Shown here one piece after another: positions 2,730 through 16,204 of a stretch of DNA of 64,000 bases. The stretch is from Dehalococcoidia bacterium (GTDB lineage Bacteria; Chloroflexota; Dehalococcoidia; Lucifugimonadales; UBA3495): assembly GCA_034423195.1 (NCBI GenBank), contig DAOUIZ010000051.1, positions 56,174-120,173 of the forward strand, read 5' to 3'. How positions within the stretch are numbered: the first letter of the stretch is position 1; every line of letters starts with the position of its first letter. The notes beneath the pieces are model-generated. The model searched no databases, had not been told where the DNA came from, and saw only the letters and a program-made list of their open reading frames with translations. Both the position numbers and the translations under genes were made by a program.

Positions 2730-3548
2730 ATGCCCGAGCTCCCCGAGGTCGAAAACACCCGGCGCTACCTGGCCGAAATCGGCCTTCCCGGCAAGACCAT
2801 CGCCCTCGCCACCATCGGCTGGGCCAACAGCGTCAGGAGCCCGTCCCTGGAGGATTTCGTTCTCGACCTGCCCGGAGGGACGGTCCAGGCAGTCAATCGC
2901 CGCGGCAAGTACCTTCTGGCCCCTTTGGACACCGGCCAGACCTGGGTCCTCCACCTCGGCATGACCGGCGGCCTCCGCATCCACCCCAGGCACCAGCCCT
3001 CTCCTTCCATGGTCCGCCACACCGTTGACTTCACCGACGGCACCCAGCTCCGCTTCATCGACCCCCGCAAGTTCGGACACCTCTGGCTCGTCGACGATCC
3101 CACCCAGGCCACCGGAAAAATGGGGCCGGAACCTCTGTCCGAAGACTTCAACGACGCTGTCCTTGCCGCCATCCTCTCCAACCGCACGGCCCCCATCAAG
3201 GCCCTTCTCCTGGAGCAGCACATCATTGCCGGGCTCGGCAACCTCTACGCCGACGACGCCCTCTACCGCGCCGGCATACACCCGGAGCGCCCTGCCTCCA
3301 GTCTCTCCCCGGATGAAATATCCCGCCTCCGGGATTCCATCGTACAAGCCCTGGAACACTCCCTGTCCCAGTATGACCAGGGCCGCCGCGACCACTGGCC
3401 CGACCCTCCCTTCGGCCTCTCTCCCTGGCTCATTCCCCGCTCACCGGATGCCCCCTGCGTCCGCTGCGGGAACGGGACAATGGAACAAACCAAGGTCCGC
3501 GCCCGCACCACCTTTTACTGTCCTATCTGCCAACCGCCCCCGCCCTAA
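2730..3548 (+). CDS. mutM: formamidopyrimidine-DNA glycosylase
   Basis: N-terminal MPELPEVE catalytic motif. C-terminal zinc finger CVRCG...CPICQ. 272 aa, typical Fpg length. Lies 6 nt after ileS. Confidence 0.93.
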   Translation: MPELPEVENTRRYLAEIGLPGKTIALATIGWANSVRSPSLEDFVLDLPGGTVQAVNRRGKYLLAPLDTGQTWVLHLGMTGGLRIHPRHQPSPSMVRHTVDFTDGTQLRFIDPRKFGHLWLVDDPTQATGKMGPEPLSEDFNDAVLAAILSNRTAPIKALLLEQHIIAGLGNLYADDALYRAGIHPERPASSLSPDEISRLRDSIVQALEHSLSQYDQGRRDHWPDPPFGLSPWLIPRSPDAPCVRCGNGTMEQTKVRARTTFYCPICQPPPP

Positions 3549-3730
3549 TACCTTCTTTCCCCGCGCCGATGGCCTGCCCTTCCCTCAACCGTCGTTTCCT
3601 GACAGTTGGCGGTTGACAGCCCCGCTGCCACAACACTAACGTTGGTAGAGCAAGCTATTCCGTCACCTCCTTGCTGGGGTTGCGTTTTGAATTTCGCTGG
3701 ACGTCCTTGTTCACTACAAACAAGCCCGGA

Positions 3731-3912
3731 ACGTTCAACAAAGGGAATGTCCCTCTGCCCACGTTCAAACATCGCAAAAATGTCCCGAAATGTCTCAGAG
3801 TGTCTCAACCACGCCCCGGTCGTGTCCCGGAAACGGCGCAAGCGGAGCCCAATTTGGCGCGAATGTCCCGTGGATTCAAGGAGTTTTGAGCACGAAAGCG
3901 CCAAAATGTCCC
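3731..3912 (+). promoter_or_regulatory. array of seven same-strand AATGTC[CT]C sites, helically phased
   Basis: TGTCCC or TGTCTC starts at 3748, 3781, 3791, 3801, 3823, 3864 and 3907. Spacings are 33, 10, 10, 22, 41 and 43 nt, close to multiples of 10-11. Two longer units ACGTTCAA-N-AATGTCCC at 3731-3753 and 3761-3786. Region is non-coding and about 50% GC. Confidence 0.5.
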
Positions 3913-3980
3913 ACAAGCAGAAAAACTGGGTTTCCTGTTGTTCTTGGCTGGTCTTGACACCCGCCCGGGCAGCCCGTTTA

Positions 3981-4009
3981 TTGACGTTGCCGCCACCACT
4001 GCGTACACT
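3981..4009 (+). promoter_or_regulatory. sigma70-like promoter for the fusion gene
   Basis: TTGACG (3981-3986), 17-nt spacer, TACACT (4004-4009). Implies a 5' UTR of about 160 nt before the ATG at 4176. Confidence 0.45.
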
Positions 4010-4175
4010 GGACAAGGCTGGATTTGGCCGCCTCCGCGCCGTTGGTGACGACTGAGCGGCCTTTCTTGTGCCTGCGACCACCCGGAAGCCTCGCGTTTCC
4101 GGTCCCGTCGGACGGTGTCTACCCGTCCCCCTTATCCGCATTACCCTCATGTACTCTTGCAAGAAGGTGAAAATC

Positions 4176-6245
4176 ATGGCGGGCTACCAGAAACATGAAG
4201 CGCAGGATTGGGCTTGGGAAAACCTGCGCGGGCAGTGGAGCACCCTCGTCACCCCTTTCACGCCCGACAAGTCCTTTGACGAAGACGGAATGCGCCGGAA
4301 CATCCGCCACATCCAGTCCCTCGGCACCCGCGGCGCCGGCTGCACCTGGGCCATGGGCGAGTTCTGGAGCCTCACCTTTGACGAGCGCAAGCATGTCATG
4401 TCCACCGTCGCCGATGAGTCCATCGGAAGGTGGCTGTCCGGCGCCCACGTCACCCACACCTCCACCCGCGAAATGCTGGCCCTCGCCGAACACGCCGAGC
4501 AGGTTGGAATCGACCTTCTCATGGTGGCCCCGCCCTACATGGTCGCCAAGACCGAGGACCAGGTCTTCGAGTACGTGAAACTGCTGGCCGACCACACGAA
4601 CCTGGCCATCATGTTCTACAACTCCCCCCAGTTCGGCTTCATCATGAGTCCCCAGGGACTGAACCGCCTCTGCCAGATTCCCAACGTTGTCGGCGTCAAG
4701 GAAGCCAGCTTCAACCAGCAGACCTCCATCGAGACCCACCTCCTGGTCGGCAAGAGGGCCATCATCAGCACCCCCGACGAGTGGATCTTCCCCAAGGCCC
4801 AGGAACTCGGCTTCCACCAGCAGGTCATGTTTGCCAACACCTCCGACTGGCGCTTCGACACCTCCGACGCCAACTACTACGTCCAGTTCATCGACCGCGC
4901 CACCAGCGGCGACCTCGACCTCGACTTCTACAACGCCCACCTCAAGGACCTCAAGGCCCTTTCCGACAAGTGGTGGGGCGGCACCGTCAAGAAGTACAAC
5001 GGCGTAATCCCCACCACCATGTGCAAGTATTGGGGCGAGCTTATGGGAATGGCCGGCGGCGGCGTCCGCCATCCCCTCATCGACATGACCGCCGACGAAA
5101 AGGCCGAGCTCAAGAGCGAGTTGACCCCGCTTATTCCTCAGCCGGAACCCGCACGGGTTCCCGCCCGCGCCCGGTCTCATGCCTCTTGGCTCAACGAGAA
5201 GAGCCAGCGCGAAGTCGACTTCTCCGGCATGATGCTCCTCGTCAGTGTCCAGAACATGGAGGAAGCCCTCGAAGCCGACCGCGGCGGCGCCGACATCATC
5301 GACGTCAAGAACCTCCAGGAAGCCCTCGTCGGCTCCGGCCACCCCGACCTGGTTGAAGCCGTCCGCGAGCGCATTCCCGAGGAAAAGCACGTCAGCGTCA
5401 CCCTCGGCGTCGTCCCCAACCAGGCTGGAACCGTCGCCATGGCTGTCCGCGCCGCCGGTATGCTCGACGCCACCTCCGTCAAGGTCGGATTCTGCGAGAC
5501 CGACTACGACTCGGCCCTGGAGGTCCTTCGCGAGTCCCGCCGCGCCCTCAAGGGATTTGACACCAAGCTCATCGGCTCTCTCTTCGCCGACAACCAACTC
5601 TTCGGCGGCCTCGAACCCCGCCAGATGGTCAAGCTTGCCCGCGAAAGCGAGTGCGACGGTTTCCTTATCGACACCCTGACCAAGGACGGCCGCAACCTCT
5701 TCGACTTCATCCCCGAGCCCGAACTCCGTGAGATGGTCATGGAAGCCAAGCAGTACGGCCTCAGCACCGCCCTATCCGGCCACCTCCGCCTCAGCGACCT
5801 TGACGAGCTCGCCCGGATTAACCCCGACATCGTCGGCGTCCGTGGCGCGGTCTGCCGCAGCGGCGAGCGGGAAGCCGCCGTCGCCGCCGAGGCCGTCGCC
5901 CACTTCAAGCACGAGCTCGACCTCCGCAAGACCGGCATCATCGACCCCCGCGCCAACGGCAACGGCCACAGCAACGGGATCGCCGCCGCACCCAACGGCT
6001 CCCACGCCGGGGGATGGGCCGTCGTCGACGGCCGGGGCAAGAACTGCGCCGGAGTCATCGCCGCTCTCACCCGCCAGATTGACAACGACGGCCACTCCTT
6101 CGTCGAAGCCATCCTCCACGACGCCCTGAACATCTACGACGTCCTCTACTGGGCCGAGCAGGCCGGCCACAAGCTCATCACCCAGCGCCGGGAGGATGGC
6201 GGCCTGGTCCGCGTCCTCATCCAACCCGGCGCCAACGGACGCTAA
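4176..6245 (+). CDS. tri-domain fusion: DapA/NAL-family class I aldolase + MfnB-like (DUF556) domain + TusA/SirA-like C-terminal domain
   Basis: ATG at 4176, 5 nt after RBS AAGAAGGTGA. N-terminal domain: AMGEFWSLTFDERK, MFYNSPQ and Schiff-base Lys context VVGVKEAS. Middle domain (from about 5229): LLVSVQNMEEALEADRGGADIIDVKN, KVGF, IDTLTKDGRNLFDF, ALSGH, DIVGVRGAVC. Tail (from about 6010): GKNCAGVIAAL. Confidence 0.8.
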   Translation: MAGYQKHEAQDWAWENLRGQWSTLVTPFTPDKSFDEDGMRRNIRHIQSLGTRGAGCTWAMGEFWSLTFDERKHVMSTVADESIGRWLSGAHVTHTSTREMLALAEHAEQVGIDLLMVAPPYMVAKTEDQVFEYVKLLADHTNLAIMFYNSPQFGFIMSPQGLNRLCQIPNVVGVKEASFNQQTSIETHLLVGKRAIISTPDEWIFPKAQELGFHQQVMFANTSDWRFDTSDANYYVQFIDRATSGDLDLDFYNAHLKDLKALSDKWWGGTVKKYNGVIPTTMCKYWGELMGMAGGGVRHPLIDMTADEKAELKSELTPLIPQPEPARVPARARSHASWLNEKSQREVDFSGMMLLVSVQNMEEALEADRGGADIIDVKNLQEALVGSGHPDLVEAVRERIPEEKHVSVTLGVVPNQAGTVAMAVRAAGMLDATSVKVGFCETDYDSALEVLRESRRALKGFDTKLIGSLFADNQLFGGLEPRQMVKLARESECDGFLIDTLTKDGRNLFDFIPEPELREMVMEAKQYGLSTALSGHLRLSDLDELARINPDIVGVRGAVCRSGEREAAVAAEAVAHFKHELDLRKTGIIDPRANGNGHSNGIAAAPNGSHAGGWAVVDGRGKNCAGVIAALTRQIDNDGHSFVEAILHDALNIYDVLYWAEQAGHKLITQRREDGGLVRVLIQPGANGR

Positions 6246-15644: not shown

Positions 15645-15748
15645 CCCGTTCCCGGCCCTGTCCTCCCGGCCCCCTGCTGACAATTGCCCCTTTCCACATC
15701 CCCACCCCTTGGGCTAACATGGTAATAGAGAGAATTGCTCTGAAGTCT

Positions 15749-15925
15749 CGGTAGCGCCGCAGGGCTATCGCATGAAGTCTGACTCGCCCATTTCACCTCC
15801 TCTCCCGTCATTCCCGCGCAGGCGGGAATCCAGACCCCCGTCGTCCATTCCCCGCAATGTGGTGTTTACCATTCACTGGAAATCTGACCAAACTGGCACT
15901 CATGCGATAGCCCTCGGTAGCGCCG
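15749..15925. mobile_element. MITE-like non-autonomous element (154 bp) with flanking direct repeats
   Basis: Perfect 15-bp terminal inverted repeats AGGGCTATCGCATGA (15761-15775) and TCATGCGATAGCCCT (15900-15914). 11-bp direct repeats CGGTAGCGCCG at 15749-15759 and 15915-15925. Internal palindromic hairpin ATTCCCGC-gcag-GCGGGAAT at 15810-15829. No ORF inside. Confidence 0.45.
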
Positions 15926-16014
15926 TCCCTTCCCTGAACCAATGGGGCAAAATGATGCAAAAAGTAGCAGAGAATTTTCCCGCTCCCAACCCGTCTCTCC
16001 CCTTGGATCAGGGC

Positions 16015-16133
16015 GGACAAACCCGGACACAACCGTGACATTTCCCTGACAAACCCGGACAAAACCCGGACAATCCAGCCCCTCGGCCGGACCCGCTCCA
16101 CGCTCAAATGTCCCGAAATGTCCGCTTTTGTCC
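16015..16133. promoter_or_regulatory. opposed phased arrays of TGTCC-type sites (six reverse, three forward)
   Basis: [GT]GACA starts at 16015, 16025, 16036, 16047, 16057 and 16068 (spacings 10, 11, 11, 10, 11). After 41 nt, TGTCC starts at 16109, 16119 and 16129 (spacings 10, 10). 17-mer AAATGTCCCGAAATGTC (16106-16122) is identical to 3778-3794. Confidence 0.5.
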
Positions 16134-16204
16134 GGGTTTTCAGCCTCTTGGCCCGAACACCCTTCCCGCTGCCTTCAACGGAAGGCAGCCCCGGCCCGTT
16201 TTCC

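Follow-up and report, generated by a model that had tools for sequence, protein, structure and literature searches.

A phased TGTCYC array in a SAR202 genome belongs to a dispersed promoter-like module linked to TerS-like genes

What purpose do seven copies of one short word serve in a Dehalococcoidia bacterium, set in helical register on one strand of the spacer between fpg and a dapA-mfnB fusion gene? An earlier note, made from the letters alone, had described these repeats and read them as typical of cooperative binding by winged-helix or response-regulator-type activators, or of iterons. We analyzed the whole 64,000-nucleotide stretch in which they lie (the window, on contig C51) together with related genomes and with the metagenome-assembled genome it comes from (3.27 Mb, 64% GC, from a marine SAR202 genus of the Dehalococcoidia), which is fragmented into 76 contigs. 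We found that the repeats belong to a dispersed family of elements that point toward their downstream genes, are gained and lost between species, and are linked to genes for proteins resembling the small terminase subunit (TerS) of phages, with array word and recognition helix co-varying. From these patterns we infer binding, promoter activity and a physiological output. It is probable, though well short of certain, that the seven sites form the right-hand array of a solo copy of a TerS-like gene's upstream regulatory region, and that an oligomeric TerS-like protein would dock on this array or wrap it. Below, contigs of this genome (G000) carry the letter C, the other genomes of its genus the letter G, and compared loci the letter L.

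A phased array inside a repeated element

The word TGTCCC or TGTCTC (TGTCYC; n = 7) begins at 3748, 3781, 3791, 3801, 3823, 3864 and 3907, always on the plus strand and exactly where the earlier note had placed it, with successive gaps of 33, 10, 10, 22, 41 and 43 bp. Some 0.1 TGTCYC is expected on one strand of 165 bp, and 200 simulated windows (first-order Markov) had 2-4 sites in their densest same-strand stretch of 165 bp, against the 7 of the real sequence, which bears out the note's view that the sites did not arise by chance. Across the window as a whole TGTCYC occurs 81 times on both strands, compared with 83 +/- 9 by chance. The phase coherence of the seven starts peaks at a period of 10.5 bp (R = 0.94; 0.27 at 10.0 and 0.42 at 11.0), so all seven sites lie on one face of B-DNA, as had been proposed. 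The remaining description of the spacer also held up. AA precedes five of the seven sites (AATGTCYC), the longer duplicated unit ACGTTCAA-N-AATGTCCC is found at 3731-3753 and 3762-3786, and the spacer is AT-richer than its surroundings, with a GC content of 0.54-0.58 against about 0.65 in the flanks. A good -35/-10 pair, TTGACG-17-TACACT at 3981-4009, was the sole sigma-70-like hit of a consensus scan of the spacer. The open reading frames (ORFs) overlapping the array, which the note judged non-coding, had no match in Pfam, and the 10-11-nt period of the array is no multiple of three.

The array is the right half of an element of about 350 bp that has its own upstream promoter-like head. Matches to the family profile extend on the plus strand from 3596 to 3942 (C51:59769-60115; nhmmer E 2e-84) and delimit what we term a type A element. 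Its head, P1, lies at 3599-3642 and consists of CTGACA (3599-3604), a -35 TTGACA (3613-3618), a C-rich conserved spacer of 18 nt and a -10-like TAACGT (3637-3642). Alignment of the copies shows that a variable leader follows (3643-3730), in the place where the related type B copies have a left array of GGACAAAA units. Next come two ACGTTCAA(A) boxes (3731-3738 and 3762-3769, within 3731-3770) with the first site, TGTCCC at 3748-3753, between them; they are the counterpart of a CACGCTCAAA box that precedes the right array in the family. The array core (3779-3828) holds AATGTCCC at 3781, AATGTCTC at 3791, GTGTCTC at 3801 and GTGTCCC at 3823, in steps of 10, 10 and 22 bp. The sixth site, AATGTCCC at 3862-3869, is conserved in the orthologous loci L001 and L059, and the family tail TTTTGAGCACGAAA-N7-AAAATGTCCCACA (3884-3915), which encloses the seventh site at 3907-3912, is conserved among type A copies.

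Family copies were collected genome-wide with an iterated nhmmer profile, and genes were called with our own simple ORF/GC3 caller. Clusters of at least three same-strand AATGTCYC sites occur at 15 loci and share one layout, which opens with P1 and a variable stretch, continues through a box resembling CACGCTCAAA into the array, and closes with the tail TTTTGAGCACGAAA..AAATGTCCCACA. The profile search identified 18 full-length type A copies (that in the window and 17 further) and about 27 type B copies, whose P1 leads into a left array built of GGACAAAA/GACATTT units, with CACGCTCAAATGTCCCGAAATGTCCGnTTTTGTCSSCA next. P1 by itself, or with a third type of array, (GCAnCAAAAT)3-GGAAAATTTTCC, marks about 14 further sites, which brings the overall copy number to some 45-60 loci. 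The P1 consensus at 54 loci reads CTGACAnTTGnCCnTTGMCA-ACCCCGCTGCCG..-TAnCnT; inspected by eye, it shows no evident LexA box of the Cheo type. Each copy carries 5-8 array units of consensus CCAAAA-TGTCYC-AAAA, and the gaps between adjacent WWTGTCYC sites are quantized throughout the genome, at 10 (29 times), 11 (11 times), 21-22 (3 times), 33-34 (4 times) and 43-45 bp (6 times). The motif is thus strongly enriched and phased elsewhere in the genome, the reverse of the outcome by which the earlier note would have counted its reading refuted, and the pattern is that of a dispersed TerS-linked family and not of a gene-specific operator.

Linked TerS-like genes and their repeat words

Two family copies overlap 3' called ORFs that encode small helix-turn-helix (HTH) proteins, and a third paralogue lies behind a site with P1 only. 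These three paralogues of G000 differ in the array they are associated with, which is of type A (TGTCYC) on C15, of type B on C23 and of the GCAGCA type on C46. The C15 gene (C15:30362-30790, minus strand) sits directly behind a full type A copy, here called the master copy, whose family tail stops 38 nt short of the start codon. A search of the genus recovered 24 TerS-like paralogues in 8 genomes, with 2-7 per genome, and in 24 of 24 cases P1 and an array of 3-10 units abut or overlap the gene start. Orthologues of the C15 gene with the same TGTCYC array and tail are present in G005 (92%) and G004 (80%). In G001, 24 dispersed arrays are of the GGGACA type, the very word that precedes its paralogue G001b, and beyond the genus, the same P1 heads arrays of yet another word, GAGACA/TCTCAAA, in a SAR202-like genome.

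The repeat word changes together with the recognition helix of the adjacent protein. RNTLRRW is paired with GCAGCA (G000:C46, G005b), RSTLNRW with GGGACA (G007b, G001b, G006g), RATLHRW with GCGACA (G004b), RGTLHRW with GCCACA (G003a), RRTLHRW with G(G/T)CCCA (G006a-e), RRTIHRW with TGTCYC (the C15 group) and RSTIHRW with ATGACA (the G002 and G007 alleles at the C15 locus). Helix and word differ even among close homologues (G007b and G004b are 80% and 72% identical to the C46 protein of G000). This co-variation is the strongest available evidence that the arrays are binding sites of the TerS-like proteins, as we infer. The orientation of TGTCCC versus GGGACA relative to P1 was at one time taken as proof of recognition at the DNA level. 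We withdrew this argument: all array types align, in the same orientation, as AAATG followed by 4-5 variable bases, so the words need not be one inverted site.

At the C15 locus, a fixed chromosomal position beside a gene for an FMN-dependent dehydrogenase, species diverge sharply in both the TerS-like gene and the array before it. Protein identity there is 42-46% in G002 and G007, compared with 80-92% in G004 and G005 (syntenic loci L103, L106, L107 and L109; G001 also has the locus). This divergence suggests either cassette replacement or very fast co-evolution.

Would the curvature of the DNA be enough? Phased A-tracts, or generic sites for nucleoid proteins, might modulate promoters with no dedicated sequence-specific protein. 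A/T tracts do run in helix phase through all three array types of this 64% GC genome, and work on phages SF6 and SPP1 argues that bent DNA is recognized there rather than the repeat words (PMC4737164). In the present family, however, the GC-rich hexamer is the best conserved part, with TGTC-C invariant (100% of 109 sites) against 45-67% for the flanking A positions, and the hexamer changes along with the recognition helix of the linked protein. We regard curvature on its own as very improbable.

The TerS-like protein has about 135 residues, with an N-terminal HTH followed by two long helices. Five terminase-small-subunit families of PHROGs match it (E 5e-9 to 1e-2), led by phrog_2538 (E 5e-9), whose match covers most of the protein. 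An AlphaFold (AF2) model (pLDDT 79) shows a three-helix HTH and then two long helices, and its top structural matches are 2ao9, a protein of the Bacillus cereus prophage phBC6A51, the TerS of NV1 (7joq) and many predicted viral TerS models, at Foldseek E-values against the PDB of about 0.05. We hold the assignment as TerS with moderate confidence. Metagenomes contain very many members of the family (20,031 representatives at E <= 1e-3), mostly unnamed. TerS-like genes are chromosomal orphans (C46 and C23 in G000, and in other organisms too) with no adjacent gene for the large terminase subunit (TerL). In several lineages the gene is followed by a conserved one of about 95 codons (C46:11415-11705, C23:90329-90616, L127:3399-3683, L130:3417-3698), which overlaps the end of the TerS-like gene by 4 bp in loci from other organisms; its product matched nothing in Pfam or PHROGs. 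A separate protein of 1312 residues from the public collection, P0020, matches the TerS-like profile in 16 separate stretches and is thus a giant tandem array of HTH modules.

Orientation, insertion history and neighboring genes

The element faces its downstream gene. Of 46 copies, 43 are co-directional with the gene that follows, which implies that orientation is selected or targeted; upstream genes lie on the same strand in 26 cases and on the opposite strand in 21. The downstream genes, of housekeeping and catabolic kinds, are functionally unrelated and include those for ribosomal protein L21, FtsH, TrpRS, threonine synthase (ThrC), ThiG, SelA and a MarR regulator, many dehydrogenases, hydrolases and monooxygenases, and also a prohead protease and a large terminase. 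With no common downstream function, the family is no pathway regulon.

Such co-orientation could mean that the element acts as RNA. P1 might drive a noncoding RNA of about 300 nt, or a cis leader, in which AAUGUCYC repeats (GGACAAAA in type B) would bind or sponge an RNA-binding protein or attenuate transcription. The conserved promoter-like head 100-150 bp upstream of the array would fit this, as would the T-rich runs that follow the tail in many copies, and GGACAAAA and UUUUGUCC of type B could pair. Yet an Rfam search of 3300-4400 returned only noise even at E <= 10, and the presumed P1 transcript has no extra fold stability relative to its shuffles (z = +0.62). The quantized spacing, in steps of about 10.6 bp that run as far as 43-45 bp, is a trait of duplex DNA; copies differ freely in how many units they have and how far apart these lie; and the protein associated with the arrays is of the DNA-binding HTH kind, its recognition helix varying in step with the repeat word. 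An RNA role is, on this balance, distinctly unlikely.

The history of the window copy can be read from its neighbors. Upstream lies fpg (mutM; 2730-3548, plus strand), for a formamidopyrimidine-DNA glycosylase (Pfam PF01149, PF06831), and downstream a gene that starts with ATG at 4176 (4176-6245, plus strand) and encodes a DapA-type aldolase fused to an MfnB (4-HFC-P synthase) domain (PF00701, PF04476). This fpg-dapA/mfnB synteny is kept in related species. The element is present in the orthologous spacer only in the two closest, L001 (G005) and L059 (G004), where the downstream proteins are 96% and 95% identical, and it is absent at L002, L003, L004 and L006, where they are 83-89% identical. 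The earlier note had named a lack of conservation in relatives among the grounds against its reading; what we found is an element present in the two closest species and absent from four remoter ones of the genus. Those four loci retain the gene's own promoter, ttgTTGACG..17..TACACT (3981-4009 in the window, plus strand, outside the element), so the array arrived upstream of an older, self-sufficient promoter. We place the insertion between fpg and dapA-mfnB in the common ancestor that this species shares with its two nearest relatives.

This late arrival counts against a gene-specific activating site, whether for a response regulator of the OmpR/PhoB type or for another winged-helix activator of the 3981-4009 promoter. 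The array does resemble Pho-box-type sites in its direct repeats, its 10.5-bp phase and the A-tract after each repeat, it ends 74 bp upstream of a sigma-70-like promoter, and many other copies have a second promoter-like -10 at 60-150 bp downstream of the array. The Escherichia coli Pho box likewise consists of TGTCA-like hexamers with an A/T spacer in an 11-bp period on one helical face. Unlike Pho boxes and other OmpR/PhoB operators, which share the 10-11-bp direct-repeat period on one face, the array does not overlap the -35 of a regulated promoter and has no linkage to a response regulator, and the genes downstream of its copies are incoherent. The same array stands before more than 40 unrelated genes and is always accompanied by its own P1 head and linked to TerS-like genes instead. 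A Pho-box or response-regulator regulon was rejected on account of the unrelated downstream genes and the insertion history. Replication iterons, the other option of the earlier note, would call for a rep gene, which is lacking here between fpg and dapA-mfnB, and at least 45 loci per 3.3 Mb are incompatible with replication origins. The proposed binding mode therefore stands in part. Cooperative binding by a winged-helix or other HTH-type protein fits the array, but an activator array for the 3981-4009 promoter or a set of iterons does not, given a promoter conserved without the array in four species and an element present at about 45-60 loci; we consider either of these highly unlikely.

Other copies have also come and gone. 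The C24 site is occupied in G005, whereas G004 and G007 have it empty; that of C27 is occupied in both G005 and G007 but empty in G001, G002, G003, G004 and G006; and at C23 and C2 it is G004 that has the empty site. For the type B copy on C29, which likewise lies ahead of a conserved -10 (TGTTATACT), G007 has the occupied site and G004 and G005 the empty one. Scanned for a triple phased TGTCYC, 7 of the 8 genomes in the genus had hits, as against none among 33 other genera from its family and order; the reversed control scored 0. Between orthologous copies, identity is 88.5% in P1 and 85.7% in the hexamers, against 78.9% in the rest of the element (Fisher p 2e-6 and 0.003, respectively), the hexamer test being a small data set of few, related sequences.

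Presence and absence so variable between close relatives would also be expected of a selfish miniature inverted-repeat transposable element (MITE), a non-autonomous transposon with no host function, whose transposase would bind the repeats as subterminal sites. Four type A copies (C24, C27, C23 and C2) do lie inside a unit of about 640 bp with the terminal inverted repeat (TIR) GAAACTATCTCAAGACC, and at C24 a 4-bp target duplication, TTAG, stands against the empty site CTAG, an IS5-like YTAR target. Type B cores are bounded by inverted ends, TGCGACAAAA ... TTTTGTCGCA, with TG..CA termini, their left and right arrays are inverted as in Tn7/Mu-type ends, and the nearest Pfam family is named "HTH of insertion element transposase". 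Against this, the window copy, aligned to the TIR-bearing copies, has no convincing TIR or target-site duplication that we could recognize, the TIR is unrelated to the TGTCYC word, and no cognate DDE transposase flanked by arrays was found. The gene-ward bias of 43 in 46 copies, together with the extra conservation of P1 and hexamers, points to function or to strong filtering. Hitch-hiking within MITEs is moreover compatible with binding by a TerS-like protein, so the two ideas overlap. As a complete account, the selfish transposon seems about as improbable as the RNA.

Tn7/Mu-like ends, suggested by a TGTGGGACA-like terminus and the inverted arrays, were sought separately and kept as a minor rival. 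The genome search gave four rve hits (an IS21-like pair, an element within a restriction-modification island and two contig-edge fragments), none of them flanked by arrays. The GAAACTATCTCAAGACC MITEs themselves (C24:44860-45470, C27:6780-7357, C23:77248-77810, and also C38:12117-12290, C59:13389-13502 and C66:41845-41965) comprise short forms of 100-160 bp and the forms of about 640 bp that bear the P1-array module.

The window holds a second, type B member of the family at 15675-16134 (plus strand; nhmmer C51:71848-72305), upstream of an HMG-CoA-lyase-like gene. Its parts, all on the plus strand, are P1 (15676-15722), a small nested MITE (about 15740-15925), a GCAnCAAAAT array (15945-15980), a left array of GGACAAAC/GACATTT (16014-16075), CACGCTCAAA (16100-16109) and a right array AAATGTCCCGAAATGTCCGCTTTTGTCCG (16107-16134). 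The left and right arrays are opposed, with six GGACAA/GACATT units in the former and three (A/T)3TGTCC units in the latter. The nested MITE-like insert lies between P1 and the arrays and has inverted ends CTCGGTAGCGCCGCAGGGCTATCGCATGA...TCATGCGATAGCCCTCGGTAGCGCC and a ATTCCCGCGCAGGCGGGAAT hairpin. A further abundant intergenic repeat of this genome contains CCTTAGACAAGTTAC; its words have about 70-110 copies (for example at C62:11090-11200 and C59:53560-53630) and form the top enriched intergenic 8-mer family.

A possible tie to phage-derived head-tail genes

P1 also heads a set of phage-derived genes. Contig C61 carries two detached phage clusters (28961-35422 and 56503-60737), one with a prohead protease, a major head protein, a head-tail adaptor, a tail terminator, a major tail (tube) protein and a 685-residue protein without a match, the other with TerL and a portal protein. 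P1 precedes both clusters, and it lies upstream of TerL in G005 and G007 as well. In the more distant genera examined it was not detected upstream of TerL beyond the closest species, so P1 is not an old attribute of the head-tail genes. Arrays, TerS-like genes or phage-derived operons accompany nearly every one of its 54 occurrences, and P1 is thus no general housekeeping promoter. All 8 members of the genus, and 19 of 34 sampled genera, have a single-copy portal gene whose identity tracks relatedness across the family, the apparent signature of a domesticated, vertically inherited set resembling a gene transfer agent (GTA). The TerL ORF as called (C61:56671-58590) has an N-terminal extension with a Cys4 zinc-ribbon and HTH_23. 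By tblastn this extension was present in G005 and G007 only, the remoter relatives that were sampled giving no match, and it may serve TerL as a DNA-recognition module of its own.

Taken together, the evidence favors the following model, in which the seven sites belong to a solo copy of a TerS-like gene's regulatory region. The cognate protein would be the C15-type paralogue with the recognition helix RRTIHRW, and its oligomer would dock head-to-tail on the phased, A-tract-bent array or wrap it around itself. At the master copy this would autoregulate the TerS-like gene, given that the array separates P1 from the start codon. In the 45-60 solo copies, spread as a promoter/operator or pac-like module that is partly MITE-borne, the protein would gate P1-driven read-through into the downstream gene; alternatively or additionally, the copies would be pac-like landing pads for the head-tail set. 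The strict co-orientation and the retained P1 favor a transcriptional role. TerS homology, and a P1 common to capsid and terminase operons, mean that packaging may also be involved, and the module may be tied to the vertically inherited GTA-like head-tail set.

Several points weigh against this model. P1 is a presumed promoter whose -10 matches TATAAT at only 3 of 6 positions, too weak for the consensus scan. The pairing of protein and array has an exception in G007, which has 21 TGTCYC arrays but no RRTIHRW-type gene in its assembly, and whose C15-locus allele is 42% identical with a different array, so the rule of one protein to one array is imperfect. For the TerS assignment, Pfam gives sub-threshold hits only (HTH_23/28/29/17, MerR, excisionase, PF13022), the structural E-values are high, and an HTH-plus-coiled-coil layout occurs in accessory proteins of insertion sequences (IS) too. 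The data behind the hexamer conservation are few. A packaging role is speculative, and the TerS-like genes do not adjoin TerL.

Known systems offer partial parallels. In SPP1 and SF6, the pac region has direct repeats and phased AT runs that span promoters and the terS start, and it is intrinsically bent (PMC4737164). The model for these phages has about 100 bp of bent DNA around a ring of weak HTHs, with regularly spaced protection and possible autoregulation, and SF6 TerS is reported to be nearly sequence-independent (PMC4737164). The C15 master copy and all 24 paralogues resemble this arrangement in having phased direct repeats over the promoter and start of a TerS-like gene, the window copy being a solo without the gene. 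Like the SPP1/SF6 protein G1P, the present protein would combine an N-terminal HTH with a helical oligomerization domain, and it matches TerS families and TerS-like folds at moderate strength. Unlike the phage genes, however, the genes described here are chromosomal orphans with 2-7 paralogues per genome, usually followed by the gene of about 95 codons, and with TerL elsewhere, on C61. The module without the gene stands at about 45-60 loci, and its repeat word appears sequence-specific and co-varies with the helix.

BldC of Streptomyces forms cooperative head-to-tail multimers on variable numbers of AATTxxxxC direct repeats and bends the DNA (PMC5859096). Like its sites, those of the present family are 9-10-bp direct repeats in variable number that combine an AT tract with a conserved G/C (here AAAATGTCYC), and the C15-type HTH weakly matches HTH_17, MerR and excisionase families. 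BldC differs in being a MerR/Xis-like winged HTH of 68 residues without an oligomerization domain, compared with about 135 residues, two long helices and TerS matches here, and its sites form a developmental regulon rather than a mobile, dispersed module with its own promoter. The position of 5-8 units of A-tract plus TGTCYC per copy between a promoter-like head and a terS-like start would be consistent with both precedents.

Nijveen, Matus-Garcia and van Passel described highly similar promoters before non-homologous genes of one genome, with gain and loss among relatives (PMC3575422). The putative promoter P1, at 54 loci and with 43 of 46 copies co-oriented with unrelated downstream genes, resembles such reused or mobile promoters. 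The present unit differs in adding a long, phased, operator-like array, in having a master attached to the gene of its probable binding protein, and in being partly borne by MITEs with TIRs.

The C61 clusters resemble GTAs of the RcGTA type in having detached head-tail genes that are vertically inherited, here known from the genes alone; P1 heads both clusters, and the arrays are linked to this set through the common P1 head and TerS homology only. To our knowledge, the GTAs described so far use no specific pac sites when they package DNA, and they lack dispersed arrays. A host-owned GTA-like system could be imagined in which several orphan TerS-like proteins diversify rapidly, each with its own repeat word, and the roughly 50 solo modules are landing pads where neighboring host DNA begins to be packaged into the vertically inherited head-tail particles, or form a terminase-derived transcription regulon fired along with particle production. 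We think this broader idea unlikely, but if it were true it would be the first GTA-type system with dedicated, dispersed and co-evolving recognition sites.

Phased direct-repeat arrays bound by oligomeric HTH proteins are an element of a kind already known. What is unusual here is a promoter-like head and array multiplied to about 45-60 loci in 3.3 Mb, with masters at orphan TerS-like genes, a repeat word and recognition helix that shift together between close species, and a P1 that also heads a phage head-tail set. Should binding be confirmed, the family would represent either a packaging-specificity protein recruited as a global regulator through mobile operators, a new route, or the first evidence of a GTA-like system that chooses its cargo. 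SAR202 bacteria are among the most abundant bacterial groups of the deep ocean and of sponges, and we know of no work on their gene regulation. For this group, a candidate pair of protein and site would be useful in itself.

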